Both the position numbers and the translations under genes were made by a program. A stretch of DNA of 64,000 nucleotides from Podarcis vaucheri (Eukaryota), in the NCBI GenBank assembly GCA_965113315.1, contig OZ220364.1; one strand, given 5' to 3'. Below the pieces are notes generated by a model that was not told where the DNA came from, searched no databases, and worked only from the letters and a program-made list of their open reading frames with translations. Below are positions 1,849-58,018 of this stretch, piece after piece. Each line of letters starts with the position of its first letter. Within the stretch, counting starts at the first letter, position 1.

Positions 1849-1930
1849 CCATACAGTGCTTGGATGGTGACAAGCCCTGCGAGAATGGTGGGAGCTGTGT
1901 TGTTTACTCCAACGGGATAGCTGCCTGCAT
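1849..1930 (+). CDS. NOTCH3: exon 2 (EGF1)
   Basis: ccctacag|CC...GCAT|gtaagt; [26 protein letters not shown]; 82 nt; not in ORF track. Confidence 0.9.
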
Positions 1931-7900: not shown

Positions 7901-8317
7901 ATGGTACTAATGATTGGTACTGGGTTTTTTAGTCCCCCAAAACAGGAATTTTGAGTTTGTGACTCCCCAACTCCACATCCATGCTGATGGAGTCCCAGCA
8001 CTGCCTCACAGTTGATGGGATAAAGGCTATAGTGCCAGAACAGCAGTAGTAATCAATCTCACTGTTCTTGATTCCAGTGCTATGAGTTTCTACAGCTGGC
8101 CTTAGAATGGGGAGCAGGAGAAAGGGACACAGCAGTGCCCACCCAGCACCCTGCAGCTATTTGATCTGTTTCTCCATTGGGGCTCGGACAGTTCCAACCC
8201 CCTCCAGTAAGGAGTTGGCACTACTTGCTACTGGTTTTCTTTTTCCTCTTTGTAATCCATTTTAGTTTTGTGGGGGCAAATTGCCATTGTAACCCTTGCC
8301 AGTAGGGATTATGATTT

Positions 8318-8363
<46 letters not shown>

Positions 8364-14300: not shown

Positions 14301-17300
14301 AGCCTTCTGTTCTGCTTTTGGACAATACTATATATTACAAAAGAGGGTGTCCAAACCATCAGGTGATAAGTTAGGAACCACAGCCATCTGGACCATAGCT
14401 GTGCCCCGAGGTTGTATGAATTACTCTCAACATAACAGCTCTGCTTGAGGGTACAGAACTGACTTGAATGCCATCTGTATAAACATTGTCCCGTCCTTAT
14501 TTCCCTCGATGTTTTGCAGTGAGACCTGCTGACAAAATCTTACGTAGGGAGGGGGAAAGACTTTTCTTAGATCTGCCCGGAATTTAGTGGTAAGAGGAAA
14601 TGGTTGGTTGGAACCTGACAGAAGGCCAATGTTTAAGATATCTATTTTCAGCTTGGCAAAGGGTAAGTGTGGGCAGTTAGCAGAATCTGCAGATGACACA
14701 CACTGATGGAGTAGTTTAGTGTGAGCAACAGGAAGTTGTCTTCAGTGAATTGTTGCTCAATAGAGGAAAAAGACATGCTTGTGCTAAGTCACTTTGCAGA
14801 TTCCTGTGTTGTTTTGTTGTGGCTCCCAATTCCTTGGTGAAATGGCAGAAAGGGGTATGATAAAAGGTGGGTCTAACTGCTTGTTGAATTAGTCCGTTAC
14901 TAGTCCATTGAGCACCAGAATAGCACTTGTGTACATTAGGGATAGCATGAGTGGCAGATGTCATCTAGTAAACTCTGTCTGTCTGTCTCTGCTAGATGCC
15001 AGCCTGGACTGATTGGAGAGCACTGCCAGTTTCAAGACCCTTGCCATCAGTCACCTTGCGCTAATGGGGGATCATGTGAGAGCACTCTGCGAGATGGCAC
15101 TGTGCACTACCAGTGCACCTGTCCCAAGGGCTTTCGAGGTAAGAATAAGCAATGTGGTGAGATGCAGCGTGTGTTTTTCTGCTCCACAGGCGTTTCATAT
15201 TCCTGATAAGGATTGCTTTGCTGGGAGATGGGAATGCACATTCTCCAGGGAGGATGGGTCCAGATTGTAGGTGAGAAAACTGGCCTTCTGGGGAAGAAAT
15301 AACCTTCTAGGTCACCTGGTACATCATCTTCCATTTAGGTCAAGACTGCTCTCTGTTTGATGCCTGTGCCAGCAAGCCGTGTGTCAATGGTGGCCGCTGC
15401 ACCAACTGGAATGGCCGCTACAACTGTACATGCCCATCAGGGTACCAGGGCCGCAACTGCCGGAGTGACGTGGATGAATGTCGGGTGCCTGGCCTATGCC
15501 AGCATGGGGGTACCTGTATCAACACACCTGGCTCCTTCCACTGCCAGTGTCAAGCTGGCTACACAGGGCAGCAGTGTGAGAGCATCTCCACACCTTGCGC
15601 TCCCTCTCAGTGTCTCAACGGCGGCACTTGCCGTCAGACAGGGGAACTCAGCTACGAGTGTGCTTGCTTACCTGGTGAGTGAACAATTTGCAAGGTGTAG
15701 CTTTGCTTGTACCTTCTGTAAGGGAGTGGGATGGAGTACTAAGCAGGTAGATTTTAGAGTGGGACAATCCCTCAGGGCAGCTGGGCGTAGAGTTACACTT
15801 GGGACTCAAGCTTGACCCTTTTCTCTGGCTACACCGTGGCATGCTTCACTATTCTCCTGTCAGGAAGCTCATGGGAAGCTGTTGAGTGCTTTGGTGGAGC
15901 AGGAAGGAAACAATCTAGGCAGTGGGAGGAGGCGGGGGAACTTGGCAGCCAGCACATGTGGCTTTGACTGCAGGAGCCAGAGTGTAGTGGAAGGCTCAGC
16001 TAATTCTTCTTCCTTGTTCTAGTCAGAGATTTGGAACAAGAGTAGAGCTTAGAATAGAGGAGGGGCGCTGCATTGCTCAGGGGCTCAGTGTGACTCTGTG
16101 GTGTTTACCAAGCCTTGTCAAGCTTGAAACTGTCCCCCTGTGGCCAATGGAATTGACACCTAGGAAAGTGTGCAAAAGATTACAACCCATAGTTGCACAT
16201 TAGGGATGGAATGGTGGGTTGTTGGGAGGATTTTTCTTTCTCTACTCGCAACAGTTTTTCCACAGTTACTGGCTGGGCTAAAATCTCCCTTTCTTCCTTT
16301 TCAGGCTTCAAGGGACACAACTGTGAGATTAACATAGATGATTGCCCAGGCCACATGTGCATGAATGGAGGCACTTGTGTGGATGGCGTCAACACTTACA
16401 ACTGCCAGTGTCCCCCAGAGTGGACAGGTACTGCGTTGTTATTGGTCCAGGAACCAGAATGTGATTGGAACAGCCTAGGATTTTAAGGGCCTTAATGGGA
16501 AATGTAGGGAGCTATCTAGGATTTGGGCAGAGGTGGGAAATGTTCTTTGCTTCTCTATACAGCGTTAACTTAATATTAGCCTCTAAGTCAGGAAGGCCAA
16601 CTGTTTTAGAGAATGAGTTGAGAAATATTACCTTATTGTAGTTTGGGAAAACACTGGCTTTAATCTGGCTTGGTGCATGGTGGGCAAAGGAAAGGGCAAC
16701 TCAGGGCTGTGAGTGTGGAGGTATTGGGGTGCATGGGGGAAGGAGAGGTGGTGCTGCAGCTGTTAGGCCATCCCTGATGAGAAGGTCTTTTAGTGAACTA
16801 AGCCCCACCTTCTTTGCATTGTAGGCCAGCACTGCAATGAGGATGTGGATGAATGCCAGCTGCAACCCAACGCCTGCCACAATGGAGGCACTTGCTTCAA
16901 TACCAATGGGGGGCATTCATGCGTTTGCGTCAACGGCTGGACAGGGGAGAGCTGCAGTGAGAACATTGATGACTGTCAGACAGCAGTCTGCTTCCATGGT
17001 GCTACCTGCCATGACCGTGTGGCTTCCTTCTACTGCGCATGTCCTATGGGCAAGACAGGTAACTGGCTCCTAGCTTGCATAATGTGTCCATGTCATATGT
17101 TTTTTTTCTGGCTAACTGGTTTGGGCAGAATTTTTGAAGGGTTTGGTCAGTGTAAAAAGAATGGAGTGGATTAAAGGGATATTGGATAACAAGGATAGGG
17201 TGTTAATCAGAAATGGAAGGACATTGCTGAACATGAACAACATATGGAAATCGATACCCCTTGTCCATAAATTCCATCCCATTCCCTACACTCCTCCTGT

Positions 17301-20300
17301 TTTGCTGTCAAGTGATTGCCTTTCATGGCCCTTTCTCTTCCAGGCCTTCTTTGCCACTTGGACGATGCCTGTGTCAGTAACCCTTGCCATGAGGATGCCA
17401 TTTGTGATACCAACCCAATGAATGGCCGTGCCATCTGCACATGCCCACCAGGTTTTACCGGAGGGGCCTGCGACCAGGATGTGGATGAGTGCTCCATTGG
17501 TAAGACAGCTGCACCCTTCTTTCGCAATTCCAAAATGTGGAAGAAGGAGGACTGCCTCTCTAGCATGTGAGAGGGGTCACTGAAATGGACTTTTGCCAGC
17601 TTTTTGGGTTGGGCTATTGACAAGTAAAGCACTTATGAGAAGGATCAGTTTCTGCTGGCATGCCCTTCTCGTTCCTTGTCTGGATTTATGCCTTAAGTCA
17701 GGGGTGCACAACCTGCAGCCCTCCACATGTTGTTAGACTACACCTCCCATTATCCCTGATCACTTGCTATGTTGGCTGGGGCTGATGGGAGTTATAGTCC
17801 AAAAACATTTGGAGGTCCGCAGGTTATGCACCCCTGCCTTAAGTGAAGGCAGAGAAGAAGTAATTTTGAACCAGCCATGTTCACTTCATGCGCATTTCCC
17901 TTCTCCAGGAGCCAATCCATGTGAGCATTTCGGAAAGTGTGTGAACACGCAAGGCTCCTTCCGGTGTGAGTGTGGACGTGGCTACACAGGTCCCCGCTGT
18001 GAGACAGACATCAACGAGTGCCTCTCCATGCCTTGCCAGAATGATGCTACCTGCCTTGATCGCATTGGCGAGTTTACCTGCATCTGCATGTCAGGTGAGT
18101 TTCCTGGCTCTGGGGAGCAGAGTGCCCATCCTATCCAGGACTGTATCTTGGGTAGCATGAGATGTGGGGAGAGAATAGGTAGGCGACTGGATATGCACAA
18201 ATTGAGGTAAAATTCCCTGCTAAGTCCAGGCTCCCTGAGTGGGCCTAGATAAGTCACTTCCTTATTTCAATTTGCTTTTAAAAGTGAAAATGTCAGTGAC
18301 CTGTTTCAGAGCTGTTGTTAAGCTCTGTGTAAAGTGTAGATCATTCAAAAAATATTATGTGAATGATTGTAGAGCAGCCTCTGCTCTTGGGCTCCCAGAA
18401 GCTTCCTGTCCCAAGTACAGGGGTACCTCGGGTTAAGAACTTAATTCGTTCTGGAGGTCTGTTCTTAACCTGAAACTGTTCTTAACCTGAAGCACCACTT
18501 TAGCTAATGGGCCTCCTGCTGTCGCTGTGCTGCCACTGCACGATTTCTGTTCTCATCCTGAAGCAAAGTTCTTAACCCGAGGTACTATTTCTGGGTTAGC
18601 AGACTCTGTAACATGAAGCGTCTGTAACCCGAGGTACCACGCTATCTTGTCTGCCAGGTGTTAGCATACCTGACTGATCTACACTGAGGCTCTGTGGAGT
18701 GGCTTTCTTTTTGCTCTTCACATGTTCTAAACACTTGAGACAGGAGGTGCCTCTCAGACTATGACACTTCCATGTCTCGTTGGCTGTGCCTGTTCTTTTT
18801 TGAGTATATCAGCAGGACGTTTCTTTCACACTGCCTGCTCCTCTTAGGCCTGGATTCTTCAGTGTGTGGGTGGTATTCTCCAAACTAAGAGATGCGCGTG
18901 GGCAGGGGGGATACAATAGTTAGATTGGTATGAGACTGTTGTGGGGATAGCCACAAGGTATAGCAGTCTAACCTGCACCTTTCCCTGGTAGATTCCAGGC
19001 TTTGTGTTCCCCGCAGTTACAAAGCAAGAACATGTTTGGTTTGTACTTTCAGTAGAGCTGGCAAATACCGATTCAGGAGAAGGGCCCAGAAAGGTGCAGG
19101 AAGCAAGATATTATTGTGAATAGTGGAGGCTTCGTCCAGGGTCCCTGGAGGAGTATTCTGCTGTTTCATCCCCCCCCCTGCCCCCTGCCCCCAAATGGCA
19201 TTGCAATTCTGTGGGCTTGGGATGAGGAACAAGCCGAGATCCTTAGAAGCGGTTTGGTGGCTGAAGAAAGCATATACATATGGAGGAATCCCTGGAAAGT
19301 GAGGGATGACTATACAGCTGTCCCTCCTCCCATTGTGGCAGAGCTATAGGACTGGGGTGCTGGGTAAAGTGATACAATGTTCATAGAGACAGTGGGAGTG
19401 CAGCATTGTGCTTGGAATATTAATGGTGGGGCCGGCCTGGCGGGTGATGTGAATTGACTGTGCTTTGTGTTTCCGTTACCCCATATAGGGAGGAACATTC
19501 TCCTTGCTTGCTCACTCATTGGTTAATGCTGGCTTTTTGTAAAAAAAAAAAAAAATCAAAAAAATCTGGGGGAGGGGTGGGTCCTGCTAGCTGAGAATGG
19601 CTTTGGTCTAGGGGCTAGAGAACTTTGTTTTAGTGTTGCACTACTGCGCTTAACCCAGTATAGCTGCATTCTGGAATCATTTCCCCCAGGATCAGAATGG
19701 AGCAAGAGGTTTGACGTATCGCCTAGATATTTGGCAAGCAGCTCCAAAAATTAGGAGCCCAGCACAAAGTGGAGTGCCTCTGCTACAAAATCACCCTCCC
19801 AAAGCAGAAACAGGAAACCTTTAAAAGTTTTTAACTGGGACGTGGAGTGTTAGTTGGAATGCTGCTGCTTGGTTGGAAAACAGTTCTGGAAACCAAGTTT
19901 TTTTGTGTGTAGCCCCAGTTCTTGAAACCCAAATCAGCATTTGCACTAGGGCGTCATCTCTGACTCCTGTTACTCCTCCAGTCCTCACAGTTCTTGAAAC
20001 TCCGCTCCCCTCCCTACTGCTAGCCTCACATCTTCAGTTCCGTTCATTGAGACAAAGTGTTGCACCAGACACATGTGATCAAACTGTTCCAAGCATAGCT
20101 GTCAACTTTTCCCTTTTCTTGCGAGGAATCCTATTCAGAATAAGGGAATTTCCTTTAAAAAAGGGAAACATTGACAGCTATGGTTCCAAGCTCCTCCACA
20201 TAGCCTCAGCTCTCCTCCTTTTTTATGGTGTAAGCTCCAGAGCTACATCACCCTCCCATTCCTTTTATGTCACTGGAACTTCCTCTCACAATTCCCAGCT

Positions 20301-23300
20301 TTGTTTATTTTATCTGTTAAGAGAAGCAGAGTATTCAATTCTCCCCCCCACTGTTCTCTCCCTCTTTCTTTTCCATCCCGTCATTTCCTGCCAAGGCGCT
20401 TCTTACTTTCCCATTCCTTTTTCCCAATGTGGATGGAATAAGCAAGGCTTGTGGGCATATCTTTTATATCAGAGTTGCCTACCCTGTAGCTTTCCAGGTG
20501 TTGTTGTATTCTAACTCTCTTCAGCACCAGCCAGGATGGGCCATGGTAAGAGATTATGGGAGTTGCAGTCCAGCAACATCTGGAAGACCAAAGGTTCTCC
20601 ACACTTCCTTTCTACACAGTATCAAAGGCAAGAAGATTCTCTGCCTCAAGGATACTTGGAGGAAGTGGGCTATGTAGGGTTATTGAGTCACCACCATTTT
20701 AGGTTTTTCTCTACTACCCCCAAGGGTTTGGGAAACCTGGCTCTGATGAGCTAGAACTACGAGATTAGAAGTTGCCTTCACTCTTGGGATTTCCCCCTTG
20801 CATAGAGATTTCTCTCCAAATTGGAAACAGGAGTTTCCTCCCACAAAACGCTGCATTCTCTTACCACCCCCTCAGAGATGAAGATACAGGCAAACTCCTG
20901 GAGACAGTTCCCATTAAAAAGGTTCATATGGAGACAAATTTAAGTGCCTTCTTACGTGAGAAAATTCTGCTCCTCCTGTCTCCCCTTTGGCAGGAAGAGT
21001 AGCTTAAGGGGGTGGAGATGGCGTCTCAGCCAGGAGTTGAGACTGATACTATAAGGCTGTAGCAGCTCAGACCCTCTATGAGTAGTCAAGGAAAGTGGGG
21101 GTGGGCCTTGATTATTTCCTCAGTGCTGCTTGCCAGCAAACTATTCATCGGAGAAGCAGACTTCACTGTTTTTATTACAGTGGCGAAGGGCTGGGAATAG
21201 CAAAGCCTGGAGGGTTAGTCATGCAATTCTGTGCCTTTATAGCTGCAAGGATTCCTTGGAGCATGTGTACACAGACCAGCAGTTGGGCAAATTCAGGATG
21301 GTCATTCCTCTATTGACCAGAGCCTGCTTAACCCCCTTGCCTAGAGAATCAGGATACTGTTGTGCTAACCTTATGCATGGCATGTCCAGTGCCCCACTTT
21401 TGCTCCTTTCTGTTATGGCTGCCTTTCTCACCTCCACAGCTAGATGGAGGACTCATACCTCAGCGGTAGAACACATTCTTTGCAGAAGTGTTCAGTCTTT
21501 GGTTAATAGACAGTCTTGGTCAAAAGAGCAGTCCCTAAACACCTTAGAAAGTGCGGCTAGTCAGAGTAGATACTGGGTTAGATGAACCTACAGCCTCACT
21601 TGGTATAAGATAGCTCCGCATGTGTATTTTTACACCCATAATTTCTGTGTGCATTAACTGCTTTATTTATTTTGTAATTGCATATTTTATTGTTGTTAAC
21701 CTACCCTGGGAACTTTAGATAAAGAGCAGGTAATAAATTTAATAAAATAAATCAATAATAATGTGCCTGGTGTACTCCCTCCCCCCCAAAAAAATCCTTT
21801 TTGATTTCCTTTTCTACCACTGGTTCCAGCTGCTGGCTGTATTTTCATCTGTTCTTTGTGTTCCTGCAGTTCTCTTATCAGGAACACGTAAGCAACTTGA
21901 CTGTCGAGCCAAGTATTATCTACTCTTAAGTGGAAGCAGGGTTTTTAGGCAGTCTTTCACATCCCCTGCTTCCTGATTCTTTTAACCTGAAGATGCCAGG
22001 GGTTGATCCTGGGATCTTCAGCATGCAAAACATGTGGCCCATCACTGAGCTGTCGTGACACGGAAGGAGTGGGAACAGAACTTCTGCTTAATTGAAAATG
22101 GAATAAGCTCAGCAGTTGCACAGATTATATAAACATTGCTTTGGATTAGTAGAACTAACACATGATCAAGTTTGATGCATGGAATGCTTACTCCACCATT
22201 AGTAAACTTAAGACAGTTGCGTTAGGATAGGTGCTGTATGTACCATGATGGTTAAGTGGGGATGTGGGGAAATAATGGAGAGGAAGGAATGGGATGCAGG
22301 GAGACTTGTAGAGACAGCAAAGATGGAGTTGGAGTTTTGGGGGAATCCCCCCCCTTCTTACTACTAGATAGGCCTTAAACTGTCTGTCTGATCATTTTCA
22401 CCTCTTAAAGTTAGTAACTATAAGGAACCAGCTTTAAAATTAGGGATTTTGTTTTTAATGCCTTGTATTTGAAGCGAAACGCTGTTATTTATTGTGCACC
22501 TTTGCCATGTAATAATAAGCTAGTATTCCTAGGTGTGAGCTTGCCAGGATGAGATGGACCCCCTTGCCTCACTGTGGTTGTGGTGCTACAGTGATGGACA
22601 CATGGGTGAGTCTAATCATTGTAATAACAAATGGTTCCTCTTGGTTGCAGGTTTCAGTGGCACTTACTGTGAGATCAACATCAACGAGTGTGAGAGTAAT
22701 CCCTGTGTCAATGGTGGCGTCTGTAAGGATATTGTCAATGGATTCAGCTGTACCTGTCCCTCCGGTAAGCCAAGGGCTTTTTTCAGCAAGGAGATAAATG
22801 GCACTGCATCGTTCGCTTACCTGTCCTCCCTGCCTGGCATAGCACAGGTGAACTTGAGCCTGTTCCCCCACAGGGCTCGTTCTCTGACTTAAAACAGTCT
22901 GCATGTTTGTGTGTATCTGAAACCTGCCCAGACCTTACTTTGATAAAGCTGGTGAGCATCTGCCCTGTTTTTAAGGAGCCTTGCTTTCATCCCTTCTCCT
23001 GATGTTAGGAAATGTCTGCCCCTTGTGTGAATTCAGCTGAATTTGAGTCTCTTAAGTTGAGCTGTGCTGTAGCTTTTCATGAGCTCACACTGCCCCTTGT
23101 GCTTCCTCTCATCCCTTGCACTGTGGTACAGTTTGTATAAGTTTTCTTTGCTGAGCTAGGAGTCCAGCTTGGGGAATTCTTTGTCAGTGTATGGGATGCA
23201 ACTGTAGCCCTAAGGAGAGTGTGTTCAGCTCATTCCCCAGGACTTGCTCCGCTTTTCTGCTACCAAGCGGGTGCGGGGCCCTGTCCTCCATTCAGTTGCT

Positions 23301-26300
23301 TCCAGGGCTGATTGACAGACAGGCCTATAGCTTGCTGTGTGGGAGCTGGGACAATGGCATCTTTGTTCCCCCAGCCTGTCGCACAGGCCCCTGAACCCAA
23401 TTTACATGTGGGGCAGACACCGCAAAGCCCCCTGTGGAGAGGAGGGGGAGAGAACATTGAGAGCCTTTGCTATAGGCCTCTGGTGGTAGGGCTGTGCTGT
23501 GCAACCAGGATGAAGTTTGAGGACTCCTGTCCCACATAATTTTTCCTCCCAATGCGAACCTGTTTTCTCTTTATCTGGAGCTTTCAGTCCAAACTATCAT
23601 TTTATTCGAGGCTTGCTCTAGCTGTGTACCCACTTCAGACACTTAGCTTGAGAACGAGTATACACTCAATTCTTTTGCCAGCCTAGCTTGTGCCCTTTTC
23701 AGACATACTTGTAAAGTCCTCTGTTACCTCTAACAGCTGGGAACTTCCAAGTACACAAGCTTTTTTCACTCAGCTCTATGTGAAACCCAGCTAGGGAACA
23801 AGAGGTGCTCTACATATAGTGCCTCCACTCTTCCACTGCAGCACTGAGTGTCCATTTCCCTGCTCCTTTTTTTATATAGCGCAGATGTTAGTGTAAGATT
23901 CTCATCCATCAGAGTGGATAACAACAAGTGTTCTTTCTGTGTGTGTTGTTTGGATCTTCTCTTGTATATATTGGGTGAAATGCAACACGTATGTTAATGT
24001 TGCCAGATTGAGTGCATGTTCCTCATTTTGTTGGTCCATCTGGTTTGTTTGACTACTTTTTCTTTCTGGGTTCAGGCTTCTCAGGCTCCATGTGCCAGAT
24101 TGACATCGATGAGTGTGCCAGCACACCATGCCAGAATGGTGCAAAGTGTGTGGACCGGCCCAATGCCTACGAGTGCCGTTGTACAGAAGGTAATTGCACT
24201 CTGCAATGAGTTATTGCCTTTCATGCTCTTCTGTGCTGCTGGAGAGGGAATTGTTTCAAATTATGAGGATGTTGTGATGACGACTGCACAAGGATTATTA
24301 GAATCTGATGCAGTCGAGAGAAAATTTTCCCCAAAACATCCTTTACACCTGCCTTTCATGGGTGCCATTTTTGAAAAGCCTTGGCTGGGTGTGTTGTGAG
24401 CTTTCTCTTCCCAATCCATGGTCCTTCATCTTTGAGCATCTTTTAGGGGAGGTGTCAAATCACTTTCTAACTTTGGTATCAAACCTTCAGCAAAGTAACT
24501 TCTCTATTCTTGATTCCCAGATAGTTGTGAAAGATCAAGATCAAATTGATGCTTGCGGGGGTTCTGTTTTATTTCCTTTTAGATGACTTCGGTTTAAAGA
24601 TTAGCACAGAATTTAACACCATGAAATTCCCAAGGAAGATTATTGTGTTCTGAAACCTAGTGGTGCACAGTGCATGCCACAACACATCATAAAGAGAACT
24701 AATATTCCCATGAAGTAAAGGAAATGGACTTGGGAGAGTAGGATTTTTTTTTAACAGACTGCAAGAAACTCCTACACAGAACGGCTTTTAGGGGGAAGGA
24801 AGCCAAATTAGTGCACACAGTTCATTCACATTGTGGAATGGAGAAAGGAGGGTTAGGTTACTCCTCATTTTTTGTTGAGTTTCTTAATTGATGTATCTAA
24901 CTTGCTTGATAAACATGAAGTGACATCCCTTCTCAGTTGCTCAGACACTTAAAAAAGGACAGTAGATGCATATCTGATTGGCTTACAAAACAATGACTCT
25001 CAGTTTGAAAATTACAGTGTTTTTAACACAAGCAGTTTTAAGTAAAGGTAAAACAGAGAACTAACAGTTGTGGAAAAAAAATAAATGTTTTGCTTGCTAC
25101 ATTTGGGTCTTTGGATGCATCTTTTCAGATAAATAGTAGTTTAGGAAACACTGGGCTTTTCTAACATATTAGATAAATGTATCTGGATGGACCTAAAAGT
25201 TATGAAAATGGAAGGGAGGGGGAAACCTTTTCCCCAGTCTGCTGTGTGCATGAATTGCTATGATGCTGATGCTGATTTCCCCTTTCACTTACAGGTTTTG
25301 AGGGGCCTTTGTGTGAAAGGAACATTGACGACTGCTTTCCAGATCCCTGCCACCATGGCACTTGTGTGGATGGCATTGCTAGTTTCACCTGCACTTGTGC
25401 AGCTGGTTACACTGGATACCGCTGTGAGAACCAGATCAATGAGTGCCACAGCAATCCCTGTCAGCATGGCGGCAAGTGCATTGACCTGGTGAATAAGTAC
25501 CTGTGCCACTGCTTGCAGGGGACCTCAGGTAGGGCATCCCTCCTCGCTCTCTTTCTCTGCTTGCTCTCATTCCTTACATCTCCCAGTCCTATCCAAAATG
25601 TATAGACTGTTTAATCAGAAAACCCTCGTAAGTTGTATATATAATAAAGTTATCAATAAAAACACAAGATAAAAATCAGCAAAGTAAAACACACACACAC
25701 ACAACTAAACGAATGCCTGGGAAAACTTGCTGCAATAAAAAAGAACAATATAATGAAGGCACCTGTCTGGTGTCAATAGGCAGGGAATTCGAAAGCACAG
25801 GTGCTGCCATACTAAAAGAGAGATCCACAAATGCAGAGTAAACATTACATGTCACTTATAAAACTCAAGTTTTGCAGATCAAAGCAGCAAAATAGGCATG
25901 TATGGTGCAAATCAATCCCCCCAACAAACTAGATATAAGCTGTTAAGGGCTTTTTATATGTGAATACTAAGCTTATTTTAAGCTGTCTGCTTTGCGTGCA
26001 TCTAGTTTGTGTGATGTCAGCTGGCCGGCTGCCAAGCACGTAAAGCTGCAATCGCACAAGTTAAATGTGTGCAAATTGTGAGTCTCCTGTGCTGCTGTTG
26101 CCAAGCTATCCTGGTCCAGTTACGGGTCACAGCTGTTTCACCAGCAGAAGCTGGGAAAAGGCTCTCTTAGCCACTGAGCACACCTGGACCTCCAGTGACA
26201 AAACTGGATTCAGAAGCACCTCCAGGCTGTGTACCTGCTACGCTGGAGTGCAGGAAACCCTCTCCAGGGCAGGAAAGGAGATCAAGAAGAAGGAGCAAGG

Positions 26301-29300
26301 TTGCACTCTTGATCAAAATCATCCCATCAGGCCAGCCACAGCTGGAACGGGTCTCGATAATCTGTACTTGCCACAACCTTCTTGACCACCTTCCCCCCAA
26401 AAAGTGAGTGCCTGCAACTGGTCAGTAGTTAGTCCAAACTAAAGAGTCAGCTTCTTTGGGAGTGGCCATACCCCTGCCTCTTTCAAGGTGGTAGGGACCA
26501 TCTCCTTATGCAGCGAAGGATTAACCATTTACATAGCTATTGGGCAGAATCCATTGATTATGCATAGGAAGCTATAACAATTTCCATTTCATTGCATCTG
26601 AACCTACTTGCACCAGTTCTTTCCACTCTATACATGTCACTCAGCCAAGACAGGAAAAAAATTCCAAGCTTGCTGTGGGTCCATTCGATGTAGGGCGATA
26701 GCATCTTTCTTCAGGCCTGTGATATATCCTTTTCTCCAAGGTGCCAATTGTGAGATCAACTTCGATGACTGTGCCAGCAACCCCTGTGATTATGGCATCT
26801 GCCGCGATGGCATCAATCGTTATGACTGCATCTGCAAACCTGGCTTCACAGGTGATGGCTGGGAGAATGAATTGCTGGTCGGGAATGGGGCAGAAGTAGG
26901 GGAAATTGAAGAGGGTCATAGTCAACAGCTACAGCTTTAATCAAGAGAGAATACCATGGCAGAATCTACAAGTGTTTGGCTTTGCAGGCAGAGCTTGAGG
27001 TAGCACTGCTCAATAGATGCTATAGGATTTAATCCATGCCTGGTGAAGGGGACAAAGCTGGATGAAAGCAGCAAGAAGTTTATTCTTGGCCACTCTGTTG
27101 CTGAGCAGTCCTTTCTCCCACTTAGGTCCCCTGTGCAACGTGGAGATTAATGAATGCGCCTCCAACCCCTGTAAGAATGGTGGCACCTGTGTGGATGGTG
27201 AAGACGGCTTCTCTTGCCTTTGCCCCGAGGGATTCCATGATCCACATTGCTATTCAGAAGTGGACGAGTGCAGCAGCAGCCCATGTGTGCATGGCACATG
27301 TCACGACAACATCAATGGGTGAGAACTGATTACCCCAGTGCATGAGCTGCTGCAGCAGGAGTAGGCAGGCTTTGCTCCTGTTGTTCCCATGAGGTGGCTC
27401 TGAAGACAGGAGTGGATTAAGTCACTTCCTACAGGCCAGTCAAATGGGCTAACAATGGGTGGTGCTTCTTGGAGGGTGTAAGAAAGCTTTCCCTCTTCAT
27501 CCTTTCTTTCCCCCCTTCTTTCCTCTGCAGGTACCAGTGTAAGTGTGAGCCAGGCTGGGCTGGCACCAACTGTGATGTGAACCACAACGAGTGTGAATCC
27601 AACCCATGCCAGCATGGAGGGACGTGCACTGACTATGTCAATGGCTATCGTTGCAAGTGCAAAGAAGGCTTTCAGGGTATGCGTCTCTATAGCTTCCTTG
27701 CCTTGCTTTTGTTGCCCGAACTTTACACCATGCTCAACCTCTGTCTAGCTCTTCTGTAGCCCAAGATACATATCTCACCCACATACTGTTTTTCATCTCT
27801 TGCCATCTCTGGATAATACTCTGCCTGTTGTCCAAAGTTATGCCTTCTATGTAACCTTCAGTGTTTGAGCCATCTAGATCTATGAGGGATTTGTAGGTAT
27901 CTGAACCCAGCTTCCCCCCAGTTCCATTTTCTGGTCCTTCATGGGAGCTGATGTTGGTTGGTGGCATTACAAGTGGGAGAAAGATTCATCTTCAGGGATA
28001 TCTGTGTTCATGGGGGACCTTAATACTTATCTGGTTCTTCTGCAGGGACCTACTGCCAGACCAACATAAATGACTGTGCCTCCAACCCTTGCCTCAACCA
28101 GGGCACCTGCACTGATGGCATTGCCAGCTATACCTGTATCTGTGACTTGCCTTACACTGGTGAGCTTTGTGGGCAGTGGGGAACACCTGAACATCTTCTG
28201 CAAAACTTAATTCTTGTTAAGGGACTTGATCTAGTGAAGGGACTTGATGGCAAACTCCATGCCAGGATTTCAGTTGGGAAGGGAGGGATTAATAAGCAGT
28301 AATTGTTTGTACATGTTAGAAATTCATATTGCCATGTTAGAAATTCATATTCTGCATTTTAGCCATTCATGGATAAGTAATGCCGATAATGACTAAAGGA
28401 CAATGGTGTGATAGTTAGGCCACAAATAATGGATGGAGAATATTGCATGTGTCTGTTTCTTCCTCCTTAAAAGATAATACAGTCGTACCTCGGAAGTCCA
28501 ACGGAATTCATTCCGGAAGTCGTTCGACTTCCAAAACATTCGGAAACCAAGGCACAGCTTCCTATTGGCTGCAGGAAGCTCTTGCAGCCGATCGGAAGCC
28601 ACGGAAGCTGTGTTGGATGTTGAGGTTCTGAAGAACGTTTGCAAACCAGAACACTCACTTCTGGGTTTGTAGCATTCGGGAGCCAAAACGTTCGACTTGC
28701 AAGGCGTTTGGGATCCAAGGTACGACTGTATGTACTTGGGTGCTCTAAAGGGAGAGTGCTTGGAGAGCTGAAATAGATGTGTGTGGTGTGAGAGAGAGAA
28801 AGAAAAAGAGAGACTGAGAAACAAAATAAATGATAAGGGATGACATGTTGCCTTTACTATGTTTAGTTCTTGGGAATTGCCACTGTGCATGCTGAGTTCA
28901 GGCGACAATGTCACAACATGGGTAGGGAGAAGGATCTGAGTCACTCATCATTTGGTGATGTCACAGGCATTATCCAATAGATGCCTTTGGTATTTGTGCA
29001 ACTTCCATTCTACAAGTCACTTTAAATTGCAACAGCATCTGCTTTCTGCAAACCACATTTTTAAAGCAGCAATATGTCATGGTTAGGGAGCCTGGAGATG
29101 GGTATAAACAAAAGTGCTTCCTCAAAGAAAGACATCTGGATCCATGCAACAAATGACTGGCAGCTAAACATTTGTTACTCTATAAACTGACAAACTGGGA
29201 AAGCTCTTGAATTAACTTTATTATATATACCTTATGTATAAAATATAATTCCCACTGACATTACTTTGTGGCTAGACATTTGGTCTCTGAACTTGATTTG

Positions 29301-32300
29301 TATTCCTGTTGAGTTCAAGACATACATGTTATATAGTTCAGAATAAGATGGCTATTAGGCCAGTGGAAATCCAAACAAGTACCCTTATCTATTTCCCTCC
29401 CCACAGGCCGGAATTGTGAGAATGTGCTGGCTCCCTGTTTCCCCAATCCATGTAAGAACAATGGTGTCTGTGACCACACACCGGACTATGAGAGCTTTAC
29501 CTGTGGTTGTGCACCAGGCTGGCAAGGTACTCAGACTCATGAGCCACATTCTTCCTGTACTTTTCTGAATATTGTGGCATCTAATCCTATGAGCCTATGT
29601 GCCAGTTTTATATTTTAATTTGTTTTAATTTTGGGGTGGTTTTTAAATATAAAGGCATTTTTACTAATTTGAGTTTGTATGGCTCACTTTCCTGAGTGTC
29701 TTTGGATGGATGTGAAAAAGAAATTTCAGAAGTAAAATTAAATATTTTTACTTGGTTTGACATTCTTGTACTGATTTTACTTCACAAATACCTTTACCAG
29801 AAGATCTGCCATTCTAATGTGGCATATTTAGCAATATTCCTGATGGTAATTGTGACTGGATAATCTAATAATTTTCTTATATCTATGCATTCTGTGTGAT
29901 TGATTATTTGATAGTAGACACATGCTTGGGATATTGTTTTGTTGTTTCCTTCATTGTTGTTGGATTTTTGCTTCTCCACATAGTGGATGCAGCAATATGA
30001 AAAAGTCAATAGAAGTGGATGGGGGGGGAGGGGGGAAAACAAACAGTAACCATATTTTCTTATCCCCATAGGGCAGCAATGCCAGATTGACATTAATGAA
30101 TGTGACCAGGACCCATGTCGAAATAGGGGCACCTGCACCAACACACATGGCAGTTACAGGTGTGCCTGCCGTCCCGGCTACACTGGTACCAACTGTGAGC
30201 TGGATATTGATGACTGCAAACCAAGTGAGTTCATTGAGCACATGGGACAACAGGAAAGAACAACCAAGAATCGGAGATCTTGCTAACTATGTTGGTGAGG
30301 CAGTATAGCAAAAAGAACTGGGTGAAAGTTCTAGGAAGAAGGAGCACTGGTAGGACAGGAAACCTAATAAAGAACTGGAAACTGGGCAAAAAGGTCATTA
30401 GGGGACATCTGCCTTTCCAGGCAGGCTTCCAAGTTCACATTTTGGGAAGTGGCTGTGCCTTGTCATTTGGCTTATGTCTAGAGAATTAAAATGCTAAGAC
30501 AATTAAATGGTACAGACTAGATGATTTAAGCAAATTTGCTTTCTTTTACCTAAGCATAATCTGTGTTGCATCACGATTGCTAATTGCAAACTCAGAACTT
30601 TGAGTGCCAGTGCTTATGTAGCCAAGACAGAACCCTCCATGCATATGAGAGAGGTGTCGGCAGGTCTGGGTGAACCCCAAGTTTTTCACAGGACTACAAG
30701 AAGTTTTGAAGGGGAAACACTCCTCTTAAACAGTCCAACAAGACAGAGTAAGCTTACTGACCATGGAATGTTGACGGATTGTTGTGGGTGGGGTGGGTGG
30801 GGGAAACTGGCAGGGGGAACAGGAATGCTTAACATAGCAACAATTGCTTGCAGGTTCCATTTGTACTTCAGACTTTTAAACTTTGCAGAACTTGGATTTC
30901 TTTGGCTAGGTATAGAATTGTAGAGTTGGAAGGGACCATGAGGGTCATCTAATCCAACCCTATGCAATGCAGGAATCTTTTGCCCAACGTGGGGCTTGAA
31001 CCCAGAACCCTGAGATTAAGAGTCTCATGCTCTACCGACTGAGCTATTCCAATATAGGCTAGAGCAGTACTAAGAGTAGGCTGTGGACTGTGACTGCAAC
31101 TGATATTCAGACAGAACTAGATCTTATTTGGATGGAGATGTTTGAATGTAACATTAACTCCTGTTAATGCCAGTGAAAATTCAACATGCCTGTGTCTCTC
31201 CTGGATTATGTCCGTGACTCTGCATGTGTGAAGTTAAACATGACAAAAGATCTTAGTCTTTTTGTATTGGAGGATGTCGTAGTGAAAGAGTTGAGAGCTT
31301 GTCTTGATCCCTCTGAGTATTCCTATCCCTGCCAACAGATCCTTGCCTGAATGGTGGCTCCTGCCAAGATGGCATCAGTACTTTCATGTGCACCTGCCTG
31401 CCAGGCTTCACAGGCATACACTGTGCAACTGAGACCAATGAGTGCCTGAGCAACCCCTGCCGCAATGGCGCCACCTGCACAGACTACGTCAACAGCTACA
31501 CCTGTACTTGTGCGCCAGGCTGGGCTGGCCTACACTGTGAGCAGAATGTTCAGGAATGCACCGACAGGTGAGCTGATAGTTTGTCATGAGGAACAGTGAC
31601 TTATGTCTGCCTATCTTTTAACTCGTATTACTCAGAGGGCACATTTTGCAGAATGGATAAAGGTAAAGGGACCCCTGACCATTAGGTCCAGTCGTGGCCA
31701 ACTCTGGGGTTGCGGCGCTCATCTCGCTTTATTAGCTGAGGGAGACAGCGTACAGCTTCTGGGTCATGTGGCCAGCATGACTAAGCTGCTTCTGGTGAAC
31801 CAGAGCAGCGCATGGAAACGCCATTTACCTTCCCGCCAGAGCTGTACCTATTTATCTACTTGCACTTTGATGTGCTTTCGAACTGCTAGGTTGGCAGGAG
31901 CAGGGACCAAGCAACGGGAGCTCACCCCATCACGGGGATTCGAACCACTGACCTTCTGATTGGCAAGTCCTAGGCTCTGTGGTTTAACCCACAGCACCAC
32001 CCCGGCCCCATTCATATGAACATAGCCAAACAGCACTATATGATAGGAGTTAGTCAAGAGGGATGGCTTACTGCTGTACAGTTCACATGTTTTATATATT
32101 CGAGCTAGTTCCCCACTGTTTCATGTTTAATAAGGACCCAGAGCTTTCTTCTCTGATTTTTAGAACAAAGTGACTGTCTTATTCTAGTAGCAATGTGCGG
32201 AAAGGGCTCTGTTCTAGAAAACTCTAGATGGACGAATGGTTCAGAAGTAGGTAGGATCCTGTTTAAAAGGAGACAGTGTACTCCTGTCCCCTCTTTGCTC

Positions 32301-35300
32301 CTAACTCCTCTGTCAGTAAAAACTGATAATTAGTTATTCATATGAACACAAGACTAAGCCTGGGGTTAAGTGCTGGATGCTATTGGGTGACAAGAACAAG
32401 ATCTGAAGTTCCCCTGGTTGTCAGTTACAGGCAAATCCAATCCAGTTGTAAAGAATGGTCTAATACTGAGCAAGGAGGGAGGCTTATCACACAGCTGCAT
32501 TTTTCACTTAGAACAGAAACTTCTGTGTAAGGCAGATGCAAGCCAGCACAACTAGCCAAGTGTTAGCGGGTGGGGTAGGCCTAGCCTATGCTGGGTGTCT
32601 CTTGGGGTAGATAACCTCCTTCCTTCCTCCTTCCTTTATTCCTGACTCCTGTACTTTTGTTCCGGCAGCTCCTGCTTCAATGGTGGCACATGCTTGGATG
32701 GAGTGAATTCGTACACATGCCACTGCCGGGCTGGCTTCAAAGGATCCCACTGCCAGCATGAGATTGATGAGTGCCAGTCACAGCCCTGCCTCAATGGTGG
32801 CGTATGCCAGGATGGTGTGCAGTCCTACCGCTGTACCTGTCCTAAGGGCTACACAGGTTCTCAGTGCCAGGTAATCCACCCCAGGCCTCTGTCGAAAGGG
32901 AATAAGGTGGTTCAGGCTTTCTCTTGTTTAAGCCTGAGCCGCTAAGTTTGGGTGGAGTTTACATCTTTTCTATAAAAACCCAGTACATATGCCTTGCAAG
33001 CAGGCCCCTAGAGAGGTTGCAGTATGGAGACACCTAATGGAGATGGATTGGGAAGGCGCCTGGGTTTCGTCATCGTTGGTGGGAGCTGGGTGCTTTTATT
33101 TTGCCACAAAATCTCTTGCCTTGTCATGCCCCCTCTAGACCCTGCTGGATTTGTGTAGTCGCTCCCCCTGTCAGAATGGTGGCCGCTGTATGCAAACAGG
33201 CACTACCTTATCCTGTTCCTGCCCTGGAGGTTGGACTGGGCGTTACTGCGACATCCCCAATGTTTCTTGTGAAGTGGTGGCCAGGAACCGAGGTAAGGAA
33301 ACATGCTCCAGGGGCAGTGAAACGGAAGCCCTTCTTCCTCATTTACTCTGCTATCTGCTTCCTCAGTGACCTTGATGACGCATGTTTGTCATCCAGGCTC
33401 CCCGGCATTATCAGCTTATGCTCACTGGCAAAGCTGATACAGGACTTCCAGAGTTGACACAGAGAATGTTACTTGCCTTCCGTGATGCGGGGACAATGCC
33501 CTTGGGTTCACTGGTGCTCCAATCAATATTTCAGACGGCTATTCCCAGTGGCATTGGAAACTAAAAATGCTCAACGTTTGAAGTCAATTTTTCCATGCTT
33601 CTAGGGGGCAGAATAAAAGCTGCAAATGTTGTTGCAGAAGTGGTAGTTCTGTATATGAAACTCTGTAATAATTTCAAAATGGTGTGATAATGGCTGAGGG
33701 CAATGGAGAGTTGGTCTGGATTCCCTGGTCCTGCTATGGTACTGGAGCACGTTGCATGTTCTGTCACAATTTAACCTCTATTATCAAGACTCTAAAGAGG
33801 CTTTTTTTTTTTTTTACATTTTACAGAAATGTAAATTAAAATCTGACTTACGAAACATTGGGATATGTTGTGCTTCCCCAATAAAGTGTCCTTTAAATTG
33901 AGGTGGGCAATAAAGTTTAGTGCTTGGAGGAAGCCCTTGGGTTCTGTTCTTATGACCAACTTGCTTGTACAATGTTGCTTCAGTCTTCACTTACCCTGCT
34001 TTTAGTCACTTTGTCTAATCATCCTTTGGAAGCAGGAGGGCAGAATATGTGGCAGTACACAATGTGTAATTTGCTTTTCCGTACAATAGGTGTGACCAAA
34101 GAGCAAGTGTGTCATTATGGCGGCCGTTGCGTGGATGCTGGCAATACTCACTACTGCATTTGCAAAAAAAGCTACACCGGCAGCTACTGTGAGAGTGAAG
34201 TGGACCACTGCCAGTACAACCTGTGTCGAAATGGGGGTACCTGTCGCAGTTTTGTGGGAGACTACGTCTGTGAGGTGAGGGAGTCCTTGCAGCCAGGAAC
34301 AGGCCAGGGTTCCTGGTGTCTCTTCAGAACTCTGGGAAACCTGGTAACATTTAATGATGAGTTGTTGAATGTCCAGTGAACAATTGTAAAATAAGATAAG
34401 AAAATGGCACAAATCTGCAACTTATTTTCCCAGTAATTAAAAAAAAAACAACAACCACGAAAACCCCTCTATTTTCTTCCAAAGTTTTATTTCGTTGAAA
34501 TATCGATATGGATTATAATTGTTTTCCCACTACTGCAACCTTCCTTACTTTTGGTGTCAATTCCTATTTGATGGCTGGTCAGATTGGTTGAACTTCCGCC
34601 ATGCCTTACAAAATCCATACATCTTTAGTTTTATTCTTTGCCGCATCATTGTTGCATATCAGCAATGAAGTCCATTGTGTTGTTTCTCAAATTCTCTGTA
34701 AGAGTTTTTTCTCATCACGCCAGGCACAGCCAAACCCATATTTATATGCCCTTGTGGGGGATGCAGAGAGTTGTGTTATGTGTAGAAAACAGCCTGCCCT
34801 ACAAAGTAAAATTTACGGTCATTGCTCCACCCATTTTTGCCTCTGTGGCTCCACCCACCACATGACTACTGGAAGGGAGTATAGCCATCAGAAGGGAATG
34901 TAGCCATCAGACTGGAGAAGGTTCACTATCTATGGTCTAGAGACGTTGAAGAAGTACAGCATTACACAGGAACCAAACAGAAATGATACACATTTTTTGT
35001 TCATCCACAAGAGCTGCAGTGTTTTCTAACAACATATGTCAGCCATGATCTTGTGATACAGTTTCATAATTATGTTTAATGTTTGTTCTTGCTATGTATT
35101 TTCCTTCCTTTTTATGAAGCCAGACTGATCTATTTGTATAAATCTTGGAATAATTTGCCATAGTCTATTTGCTCAAAGTCCCATTGAAGTTTAATAATCT
35201 TAATTTGGACAAGAAAGAGGATGGTGCAACTTGAAGGATCTTTCCCTTCCTTATGAAATTGTACTAGTTTTACTTGATTTTACACATCAATAATAGTACA

Positions 35301-38300
35301 GTTTAACAAACAAAACATAAATTTTAATGGAACCAAGAGCAGGAAACCTTTTCAAGGACGCAAGACTTCAGCCTTTCTGGCCCCTTTGTGCTCATTGCTG
35401 TTTTTTCTTGTTTGCTTCTCCTCTACTCCAGTGCCCGCTAGGGTTCGAGGGGAAAAACTGTGAGTATGACATTGATGAGTGTCAGTCACACCCCTGCCAG
35501 AATGGAGGGACTTGCATTGATCTTGTTGGCCGCTACATTTGCTCCTGTCCACCTGGAACTCTGGGTAAGTGCTCCTGGGTAAAGGGAGACCTTTACCAAT
35601 ATTACCTGTCGGAGGAAAGTAGCAGACTGGGGAAAGGATTTAAGTTCTTATGGCACAGGTTTTTATTGTTGGATTTGCAGTTTTGTTGAAGAATAGTGAA
35701 AGGGAGCTCTGAATTTCCCCTTAGGGCACAGGATGGAGAACATGGGCTCAGAGTTCTCCCAGGCCTCTTTTTGAGGGAGGACAGCTTTAGCAACAGTGCC
35801 CAGGGCAATGGATGGATGGATGGATGTTGACTCACTGTTGGGCACCATAAAGGGCGAGGAATCTTGTTTTTTCCACAGAGACAATGCAAGGATTGTGAGA
35901 AGGAGGAAGAGGTTTGTCTTCCCTGAGTCTGGATGTTTAATGTGATTGCGTGTTTGTCATCTCTCTAGGTGTCTTGTGTGAAATAAATGAAGATGATTGT
36001 GCTATGAATCCTGGCTCCCGGGTCCCCAAATGCCTCAACAATGGGACATGTGTGGACAGAGTTGGTGGCTACCGATGCAGCTGCCCACCAGGTTTCACAG
36101 GCGAGCGCTGTGAGGGAGACATCAATGAGTGCCAGTCCAACCATTGCCACCCACGCAACACACTTGATTGCGTCCAGGAAGCCAGTGACTACCACTGCAT
36201 TTGCAAGCCAGGCTACACTGGTGAGTGACAGTGTGTTCTTTTTTCATGTGGCTGATGTGTGCAAGGAGCAAGGGAGAGTGTGCCCAAAGCGGACCCCAGT
36301 GATGTGTAGAGGAGCCAGGCTCAAGGGCTGCAAGTAGGAAGACTCTCCCCTGTAAAGAAGTTAGGAGTTCATCTTCAACCAAGTGGGTGGAGGGGAATCC
36401 AGCTGTGCAGCTAAATGCATATTTGTGATCTAAAACAAAGATTGGAATGGTGACTGGATGAGATGGGCCTCTTTGGCCATTTCAGTGAGCAAATATGAGC
36501 TTTGAGAACTAGTGCTAAGATGCAAGGCCAAATATAGCAGGGTGGTGGTCTTTGGGGGTAGGTTCTGTTGGAATCCATCAGTAATACTCTTGTTTTTCAT
36601 ATCCTCAGGCCGCCATTGCAAGAACATTGTGAATGCATGTGACTCTCAACCTTGCCAGAATGGTGGGAAGTGTAATCCGGCAGTCAACCTGCCTCTAGGC
36701 TACACCTGCCACTGTCCCCGGGTGAGTCCCCTACAACACAGCTGCTTACAGCAAGTGGCTAATGCAACTCCTATACACAAACATTGCAAGGGGCTAGGCG
36801 AGGGAGAGAAAGGAAGACTGCGGTTGGGAGGATTAGGTGGGGGAACCGTTAGGTTGACATGTTGGTGCTGTGCTATGAATGAGTTTCAGTACCTGTTAGG
36901 ACAAGGTTTCTGTCTGGGAGGCTTTTTGGAGGTAGAGAGTTTAGTGTCCTCCAATGCAACGCTTGTCATGGAAGGAGTTTCTATTTGGGAGTGGCAGGAA
37001 ACAATTCTGCCGTGTGATCTTGTGGGAATTCTGGTTGTGAAACCTGCAAGAGAAGTTTGATGCAGTGCCATAACACAATGCAGAAGTCTAATATTGGGTA
37101 ATAAGGGGAGATGGTGTTGGTGAATGGTGCCCAGTACTGGAGGATGTGGGGTGTGGGAAGGTACTTCTTGAGGGCAGGTTATGGGTGCTGGGCCTTGAGA
37201 TTTGTGGAGGGAAGAATTTACTCACCAAGCTGAGCGCTTGTAAGAGAGCAGCTATGGTGCCAGAGGCTTTCTGTTGTAAGGCCAGCAGTTGGAGCGATTT
37301 GAGGGCTTGGCCGGCTTTCCAATCCTAACTCTGCTTGTTATTCTTTTCCAGGGTTATTCAGGCATCCGCTGTGAGCGCATGCTCTCCTGCCGGGAACTCT
37401 CCTGCTTCAATGGTGGCAGCTGCCGGACCACAGCGCTGGGTCCTCGCTGCTCCTGCCTGCCTGGGTGGGCTGGACCGGAATGCCGCCTGCATGCCAACAG
37501 CAGCTGTGCCAGCATGCCCTGCCACAATGGGGGTGCTTGCCATGAGACTGCTGACCCCCCTTATTTTCAGTGCCTTTGTCTTGGTGACTACACGGGGTTT
37601 CGCTGCCAGACCCGCACTCTGAAGCTCCCTGAGGTCCACTGCCCGCTGAAGGAGTGTGCTGCAAAGGCTGGGGATTTCTACTGTGACAAGATGTGCAACA
37701 GTCCAGCCTGCCACTGGGATGGCGGTGACTGTTCCCTGCGAGTCGATGATCCCTGGAAGCAGTGCGAGAGCCCCCTGTGCTTGCAGCTCTTCAACAACAG
37801 CCAGTGTGATGAGATGTGCAACACTGCCGAGTGCCTTTATGACAACTTTGACTGCAAGAGCCATGAGTCCAGCTGCAAGTGAGTCCTGCCACTGCCTCTT
37901 GAGTAGGGGAGACATCTAGTTGTGTATACTGTACCAGAGACCCCTGGAATCAAGGGCCACCCCAACTAAATGAGGAACCAAGACTTATTTTAGGCAGCGT
38001 AGGGGTGCTTTGCACAAACACGGGTGCTTCCACTGAGACCTATGAATTTATATCTGTCCCTTTGTCCGACACCAAACATGGCAGAGTCTTGGTATTATTT
38101 GCATGGATTCCTTCTATGTGTTCCACTTGACTAGCTCTGAGACTTGGCCATGTTAGCTGTGGGGTGTAGGAATCCGCTGCAGACCCATAATGCCTTGTGC
38201 CCTTTCCTCCTTAGGGCTTAACAAGGCACCAGTGAGCTGTATTGGCACAGGGTTGGTTATGACAGGCATGACTCAGTTCCTTCTCCTCCTCCTTCTTCCA

Positions 38301-44428: not shown

Positions 44429-45082
44429 GGAGGCGGGTGGTGGAGCAGATCCCAGAGGCCTGTGTCCCTCTGTGGCCCCCATTGGGGCCTGCACTTGCCT
44501 CAGGGGCTCCTGTCGTCGTTTCCCCTGACTGTGTTTTTATAAGAGAAAAACTCAAGTGTAAAAAGGTTTTTTTAAAAAATAAAATAAAATATGCCTGGTC
44601 TTGGAGGGGGAAGGCATGGCCTCCCCCCCGTTCCCTCACTGCCACAGAGCCCAGGCTGGCCCTCTCCCTCCCCCTCCCCTGTAACCATGGCAATGAGGTT
44701 TCAGGGGAGGATTTTTTTTTTTAAAAAAAGAAATAAACTTTTTTTTTTTGTATAAACACTGCATTTACTCCAAACGCTTTATTTTTTACAATGTATGCAA
44801 TGTCAGAACCCCTGTCTTGCCACTCTTCTTCCTATGGGTCTTGAGCTGTGAGGAATGGAGAGGAAACTGTGCCCCTTGCTCCCCCCCCTCTGCATGGCAC
44901 TGTCTCTCGGGTCGAGCACCCACCTCCCCTCCCACCATGTTGGGGCGGGATTCTGCTCACTGTATTTGTGTACTGGGTACGCAGCATTAGCCCAGACTGG
45001 CATTGCTATGCAGAGGGTCGAGCCCCAAACCTGCCCGCTGTCCCGCAGGAAACTAAGCCCCATAGCCCCCCCCCAAACTTGG

Positions 45083-45099
45083 CACTTCTTCACATTCCA
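45083..45099 (+). promoter_or_regulatory. miR-1/miR-206 8mer site with extended 3' pairing
   Basis: CACTTCTTCACATTCCA; further sites ACATTCC 45295-45301 and ACATTCCA 45560-45567. Confidence 0.75.
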
Positions 45100-45870
45100 G
45101 GTTAATTTATTCATCTTAAATTCTACAGCATTCCCACCCTGTCCCCCACAAAATCCCCCTTGACTTTCCAAATTGCTTCAGCTAACGCTAGCCATGGTCA
45201 TGGGGATTTTTTCAGTCTCCAGAGTATTCTGAGCCACTCTTGTTTTCCCCTTTTTATTATTATATTTTATTATTATTATTCCCGGCCTTTACTAACATTC
45301 CTCCCATCTGGTCCAAGGCCGCCTTCGGCCTACATCGGCAAGTTACATGTTCCCTGTACGACGAGTTCCTTGCCCCTGCGGTACTGCGTGGGAATCTTGG
45401 GGGCAGCCCCAGACACTAAAAAGAGTTTCACTCTGTCGTGAAAGGTACTGAGATAGAACACAAAAGGCTTCTTCTGTTTCTCCTCAGAAACATCTGGCCC
45501 CAGCAGCCAACTACCTACACTTTCCTCACTCCCTGACCCCCCTCCCCTTCGCACTCTGTACATTCCAGCTATCCCTGGCTGTAAATACTGCTGGTGGGAG
45601 CAGGGGCCCAGGCAGGACCTTGGTCCGGTGGGGACCGCTGCTTCCTTCCCACCCCACCCCCTTCCCTTCCCATGCTCTGTAGCAATAGTGGGGGAATGGC
45701 CCTGCGCAAGTCAGACCTCTCTTGTCATAGAAGGACCATTTCTAGCTCATTTAAATAAATAAACAAAAAAACTTTTTTAAAAAAACAAATTAAAAAAAAA
45801 ATCCAGTGTAAACCAAGTAGCTTTAAAGCAGCTGGGTGCTTTGTGTACAGAGCGGCTTGAGCCGCGGCAT

Positions 45871-45876
45871 AATAAA
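45871..45876 (+). terminator. distal poly(A) signal AATAAA
   Basis: Upstream TGTA (~45844), downstream ctgtgtgtcttttgtttcg; other AATAAA at 44578, 44583, 44732, 45754. Confidence 0.65.
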
Positions 45877-45981
45877 CATAGCTAATAAGGAAATCGCCTC
45901 TGCTTCCTCTGTGTGTCTTTTGTTTCGTAGTTGCAAGTTCCGGCTGTGTAGCAAGCTACTACATATTTACATATATCTATA

Positions 45982-46213: not shown

Positions 46214-46281
46214 TAGTCTACTACAAATAGATTCAATAGGTTTTGTCTTGTTTTCCTTCCATTCTGGGTCACTATGGAATA

Positions 46282-48495: not shown

Positions 48496-48578
48496 CTGAA
48501 AACCAAAGTTTTGCAGCCCCGAATCAGTGAAAATGTCAGAGATCCTGCGTATGGGAAAGTGCCTATAGGAACCAAGTA

Positions 48579-57973: not shown

Positions 57974-57975
<2 letters not shown>

Positions 57976-58017: not shown

Positions 58018-58018
<1 letters not shown>

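Follow-up and report, generated by a model that had tools for sequence, protein, structure and literature searches.

An EGF repeat lacking in placental NOTCH3 is encoded by a spliced exon in a reptile and probably belongs to the ancestral jawed-vertebrate receptor

We have found that the NOTCH3 gene in a window of 64,000 nucleotides from Podarcis vaucheri (the whole stretch of DNA analyzed here) encodes 35 EGF repeats, one more than the placental receptor. The additional repeat comes from exon 15, and we give a probability of about 0.9 to the reading that this exon is a normally spliced part of reptile NOTCH3, that it represents the ancestral state of jawed vertebrates and that the placental receptor of 34 repeats arose by its later loss. 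An initial annotation, made from the letters alone, had marked a clean exon of 114 nt and phase 1-1 at 28046..28159, and so it proved to be: its borders are AG/GT (AG/GGACC...ACTG/GT), it is free of stops and in phase 1 at both ends, and junction reads cover both sides. The features of the gene are the following.

Candidate exon 1, G000:C10:46922658 (L007 8658-8754), about 11 kb upstream of the window; intron 1 would measure about 13 kb.
NOTCH3 exons 2-34, 1849..44428, plus strand: 35 EGF repeats, 3 LNR, NOD/NODP, transmembrane segment, RAM, ankyrin and PEST regions.
Exon 2, 1849-1930, plus strand: first exon within the window.
Exon 3, 14996..15138, plus strand: 143 nt, a single fused repeat corresponding to NOTCH1 EGF2/3 (gene model, no RNA).
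Exon 14, 27531..27676, plus strand: 146 nt, end of EGF18 and the larger part of EGF19, the counterpart of NOTCH1 EGF20.
Exon 15, 28046..28159, plus strand: 114 nt, phase 1-1, Cys6 of EGF19 and Cys1-5 of EGF20.
Exon 16, 29407..29526, plus strand: 120 nt, Cys6 of EGF20 and most of EGF21.
Exon 34, 43190-44428, plus strand: last exon, ending with the stop.

The 33 exons in the window, all with AG/GT borders, join into one open frame of 2366 aa, and the 210 cysteines ahead of the first LNR make 35 regular EGF repeats in the gene model. Ahead of the window, over a distance of 20 kb, only one candidate for exon 1 passed our filter, with 97 coding nt, a signal-peptide-like product, a GTAAG donor and phase 1, located in a CpG island. 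Counting this candidate makes a total of 34 exons, in agreement with the 34 exons and 35 repeats put forward in the initial annotation. The sizes given there for the neighboring exons (146, 120, 153, 229, 154, 113 and 149 nt) were also correct. Our RNA check covered exons 13-17 only, and exons 1, 3 and the remainder are gene model. The architecture is that of a Notch receptor, with LNR and NOD recognized by Pfam and RAM, ankyrin and PEST by alignment to named Notch proteins.

Within exon 15, the residues TYCQ, which precede the peptide quoted in the initial annotation, supply the sixth cysteine of EGF19; that of EGF20 is encoded by exon 16. The completed repeat has six cysteines in EGF spacing and the calcium consensus D/N-x-D/N-D/E ... 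D/N ... Y/F in a pattern scan. The O-glucose and O-fucose consensus are likewise present by pattern, so that the three kinds of consensus residues listed beforehand are all there. Pfam scored the repeat as EGF above its cut-off (E=2.4e-9), and this value, together with the spliced reads at both junctions, indicates that the exon is not a product of chance. The next repeat, EGF21 of exon 16, is of the non-calcium-binding kind and is the counterpart of NOTCH1 EGF22.

Other parts of the window showed some peculiarities. Exon 26 contains a near-tandem duplication of about nine codons (38567-38625, PYYGSG twice) directly before the furin-type cleavage site, in a place where the turtle protein has one short stretch. 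In exon 31 (41134-41136) there is a threonine in the first ankyrin region where 7/7 homologues have alanine (ADAAKRLL), which may be a lineage change, an allele or an assembly error. We recognized no second protein-coding gene downstream, at 44429-64000, and whale ILVBL, which we take to be the expected neighbor on that side of NOTCH3, gave no tblastn match within the window.

We have examined the splicing of region 27100-30300 in two stranded RNA runs of one study (X23 and X24), of which about 12% each was read. The joint 27676-28046 was crossed by 20 and 23 reads and the joint 28159-29407 by 16 and 50, respectively, always on the strand of the gene. The neighboring joints had comparable numbers (26-32 and 24-30 reads), and the read depth over exon 15 equalled that of its neighbors. 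Contigs from two other studies (X5 and X7, presumed to be RNA) carry exons 13-17 in order. The joint that would skip from exon 14 to exon 16, 27676-29407, was absent from 4/4 runs among joints with at least 3 reads; at this threshold and with the low RNA depth, skipping below roughly 10% could escape detection. The comparison of inclusion with skipping reads that the initial annotation had proposed gave 20 and 23 reads in X23 and X24 for the first and no listed joint for the second. Loose ends behind 27677, 5 reads in X23 (of mixed consensus) and 6 in X24 (starting with exon 15 letters), were not taken as skipping. A further loose end at 27564, in the X5 and X7 contigs, leads into exon 18 and seems to be a mis-match from repeat to repeat. 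Intron 15 contains at 28490-28730 an interspersed repeat that attracts reads and contigs from other sites of the genome, and similar stretches are found near 3540-3900, 46150-46670 and 48600-48890.

These data bear on the possibility that exon 15 is an alternatively spliced cassette, i.e., that reptiles make receptors of both 35 and 34 repeats and mammals fixed the skipped form. The exon is certainly symmetric, and its removal from the gene model keeps the frame and leaves 204 cysteines; yet nine other EGF exons are equally skippable (10/23 tested give a clean in-frame skip). Skippability is therefore a permissive condition and no evidence of a switch. The donor of exon 15 fits the consensus at only 6/9 positions, but several of those other exons have weaker matches. 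One carp-family model (P0163) does join the flanking exons directly, although the join leaves five cysteines and looks like a prediction error. With inclusion joints in 4/4 runs, the skip joint in 0/4 and an even depth over the exon, we consider a cassette improbable and a constitutive exon the better description.

The repeat could be placed by comparison with NOTCH1, whose EGF20-24 and EGF21-23 have been reported as crystal structures for the human protein (PMC12979247). The exon 15 peptide matched both PDB 9B3N and 9B3G, with 54.8 bits to the second repeat of 9B3N and 16-29 bits to the other four. When rodent NOTCH1 was counted from the N-terminus, the repeat matching exon 15 was number 21, and the flanking exons 14 and 16 matched NOTCH1 EGF20 and EGF22. 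By sequence, then, the repeat is the counterpart of NOTCH1 EGF21, the resemblance already seen in the initial annotation.

We have compared NOTCH3 models across vertebrates, reading the presence of the repeat from the best identity over 39 residues and from printed alignment regions. It was found in 38/48 models from non-mammals. Of the named non-mammal species, which range from ray to turtle, 25/29 have at least one model with the complete repeat: turtles (3/3), the tuatara, frogs (4/4), a lungfish, a stingray and teleosts (15/19). Two of the remaining teleosts have half of the repeat and two (Sphaeramia and Scleropages) have none, in models that are garbled at the site or lack adjacent exons as well. 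The repeat is incomplete or absent in 10/48 non-mammal models, and those viewed miss neighboring exons too. Garbling is frequent in the public models. There may be a few losses among teleosts. In placentals the repeat was present in 0/14 models from 7 taxa (tenrec, three rodents, two cattle and donkey); two partial tamarin proteins that do not span the site were dropped from the original 16. The flanking repeats are joined directly in 6/14, three of which show in the alignment a gap of 38 residues at the exon borders, and the other 8/14 are garbled or miss further exons at the site. In 6/6 placental models the repeat before the gap is identical to EGF19 of the window gene at 15-18/29 positions vs 10-12/29 for EGF20, and this closer resemblance to EGF19 indicates that the missing piece is exon 15. 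The lack of the repeat that had been attributed to mammals is thereby borne out, for placentals only. Marsupial, monotreme, xenarthran and crocodilian NOTCH3 were outside the sample, the sole bird protein was too short, and nothing like a marsupial NOTCH3 was recognized among the proteins compared. The reptile is the ordinary case, and the 34-repeat placental NOTCH3 is likely the derived form.

A different origin, by which the exon would have been gained or replaced in this lineage with NOTCH1 or NOTCH2 as the donor, by copying or by gene conversion, appears very improbable. It could be suspected because the repeat is identical to EGF21 of mammal and bird NOTCH1 at 29-30/39 positions and to frog NOTCH3 at 24-27/39, and because the exon sizes are those of NOTCH1. 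However, the NOTCH3 of tuatara (35/39), turtles (31-34/39) and lungfish (33/39) are closer to it than the NOTCH1 copy of its own genome (72%), the NOTCH3-type motif DG[IV]AS is common to the window, ray, lungfish and teleost NOTCH3, and a repeat present in all non-mammal groups requires no gain.

The identity of the gene as NOTCH3 is supported by a tree of 25 Notch proteins, a quick search rooted at the midpoint that included neither NOTCH4 nor an invertebrate outgroup. NOTCH1, NOTCH2 and NOTCH3 were split with support of 98-100, and the part of the window protein after the EGF repeats grouped inside NOTCH3 (SH-aLRT 100) with the tuatara as sister. The gene also has the EGF2/3 fusion, with 33 cysteines before the shared EGF6/7 anchor vs 39-40 in complete NOTCH1/2. 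NOTCH1 is present in the same genome as a second gene, which has a copy of the exon too (97.6% identity with the one in a lacertid lizard protein), and the sizes of exons 13-16 (193, 146, 114 and 120 nt) are the same in both genes. That the window gene is a copy of NOTCH1 or NOTCH2, or the exon a silent relic, has practically no probability left: NOTCH1-like exon sizes around the site and public fish NOTCH3 models labelled 'notch 2-like' could suggest it, but the position in the tree and the EGF2/3 fusion, on the one hand, and the spliced reads, on the other, refute it. With the exon in transcripts, the gene grouping with NOTCH3 and a clean gap of 38 residues in placentals, none of the three opposite outcomes foreseen in the initial annotation occurred. 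Five of the fish proteins named 'notch homolog protein 2-like' (P0158, P0163, P0172, P0176 and P0188) are NOTCH3 by intracellular identity, with 72-73% to the window protein vs 57-62% for NOTCH2 entries. A search with an ankyrin exon returned generic ankyrin proteins, with no Notch among the 120 matches listed, and was not used.

A NOTCH3 gene that retains exon 15 in most vertebrates leads to a history in two steps. The organization of 36 repeats is common to NOTCH1, NOTCH2 and Drosophila Notch (PMC12979247), and the starting point would be a Notch gene of this kind. The EGF2/3 fusion is common to ray, lungfish, teleost, frog, turtle and placental NOTCH3, and an additional repeat is found at that place in NOTCH1/NOTCH2; by contrast, among the NOTCH3 groups compared, only placentals lack the EGF21-type repeat. 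Since the fusion is shared from ray to mammals while the repeat was lost in placentals only, these would be two separate losses, with the fusion first. EGF2/3 would have fused inside exon 3 before the split of rays and bony fishes, leaving 35 repeats, and exon 15 would have been lost on the line to placentals, leaving 34, after the split of reptiles and mammals and before tenrecs parted from rodents and ungulates. The two independent losses and their order, as proposed in the initial annotation, are supported by this distribution; the second is dated only to the interval between the amniote and placental ancestors, as the sample has no sequence over the repeat from marsupials, monotremes, birds or crocodilians. 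The end state of this history fits the human receptor, for which 33 exons and 34 repeats (PMC7372551) and the lack of EGF21 and of parts of EGF2 and 3 (PMC7603621) are reported.

The loss would have been tolerable, as a phase 1-1 exon with exactly six cysteines was removed and Cys1-5 of EGF19 could pair with the first cysteine of the next exon. The initial annotation was right in that skipping gives an in-frame, cysteine-balanced protein; it would not be a mammal-like receptor, because the flanking placental repeats have been remodelled as well. The two repeats before the gap lack the calcium consensus in placental NOTCH3 and have small insertions or deletions, and no other NOTCH3 branch of the tree is as long as the placental stem (0.55 vs 0.05-0.06 for reptile stems, with frogs at 0.41), although the placental composition is atypical. 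These lost calcium sites, nearby indels and long stem make the exon loss look like part of a wider remodelling of placental NOTCH3.

The exon itself is already annotated, in the RefSeq frog model XP_075063078.1 and in several UniProt models, as had been suspected for non-mammals. In the open literature we found no statement or dating of a 35-repeat NOTCH3, older cloning and comparative papers, figures and supplements being beyond reach. The point may already have been made in the paper of 1994 on mouse Notch3 or in those of 1997 and 2001 on zebrafish Notch genes. Two things may be under-described, the history in two steps and the tie between this repeat and the weakly calcium-binding EGF21 of NOTCH1; the history would be tidy and mildly useful to a Notch specialist, not surprising. 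In the parts available, the '35 EGF-like' of PMC11120892 refers to human NOTCH2, the text of PMC3759344 on zebrafish notch3 gives no repeat total, and PMC7649014 draws no comparison between NOTCH3 orthologues as to the number of repeats. The textbook description '34 repeats, no EGF21' applies to placental NOTCH3 only, with 35 in most vertebrates, so that after EGF19 and exon 14 the numbering of repeats and exons differs by one. Zebrafish, a model for NOTCH3 disease, probably has 35 repeats, given that teleost models carry the repeat (the full-length zebrafish protein was outside the sample). In addition, the loss sets a precedent from evolution: a symmetric exon of NOTCH3 can be taken out and the receptor stays intact.

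As to function, the ligand-binding repeats of NOTCH3 are EGF10-11 (PMC7372551), and the exon 15 repeat, in the stalk that leads from them to the negative regulatory region, is predicted to act as a link that is glycosylated and binds calcium. In human NOTCH1, EGF21 binds calcium unusually weakly (KD about 1.3 mM, with an occupancy of about one half in the extracellular space), which makes the EGF20-21 joint flexible, and the authors propose that it may serve in cis/trans docking or in mechanics, NOTCH3 being unmentioned in the parts available (PMC12979247). By analogy, the exon 15 repeat would bind calcium weakly and form a calcium-dependent flexible joint with the preceding repeat. Such a joint is plausible in reptile NOTCH3, since the repeat and its upstream neighbor are close to the NOTCH1 pair. 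We put forward as a rather doubtful extension that placental NOTCH3, by deleting this hinge-type repeat and dropping the two preceding calcium sites, replaced a calcium-switched joint by a calcium-free segment. If so, fish, frog and reptile NOTCH3 would be mechanically unlike the human receptor in cis/trans ligand handling, in ligand-independent activation or in aggregation, and this difference would matter for zebrafish models of CADASIL. Frogs dropped the same two sites but kept the exon, which argues against over-reading the loss of a hinge, and the link of the EGF21 loss to properties of NOTCH3 is hypothetical.

Among known systems, the closest are other non-mammal NOTCH3 models, which have the same repeat in the same place with 24-35 of 39 residues identical (tuatara A0A8D0G7V2, lungfish, the stingray Hemitrygon, the frog Mixophyes, XP_075063078.1 or P0470, and the turtles Carettochelys, Chelydra and Pelusios). 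They share the EGF2/3 fusion where covered and show no difference of kind from the window gene. Frog NOTCH3 lacks the calcium consensus in the two repeats preceding the EGF21-type repeat, whereas the window gene retains both; in P0470, P0185 and P0184 these two losses are apparently independent of those in placentals, with the repeat retained. Placental NOTCH3, human included, is an orthologue with the EGF2/3 fusion and the same domain order, but without exon 15 and with the repeat after the gap two residues shorter.

The best structural relative of the exon 15 peptide is human NOTCH1 EGF21 (PDB 9B3N and 9B3G), which likewise lies between EGF20 and EGF22 and has calcium, O-glucose and O-fucose consensus. 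In the NOTCH1 of the same genome EGF21 is also encoded by a 114-nt exon. NOTCH1 is, however, a paralogue with 36 repeats vs 35 in the window NOTCH3, and weak calcium binding and a flexible EGF20-21 joint have been measured for NOTCH1 alone. Finally, a natural case of exon 9 skipping in a CADASIL family takes out a symmetric exon and leaves a fusion repeat with six well-spaced cysteines, and the logic of this 'cysteine correction' is that of the evolutionary loss of exon 15. The two differ in that exon 9 touches the ligand-binding repeats and its removal impairs signalling (PMC7372551), whereas exon 15 encodes a part of the stalk and has become fixed as lost in the course of evolution.
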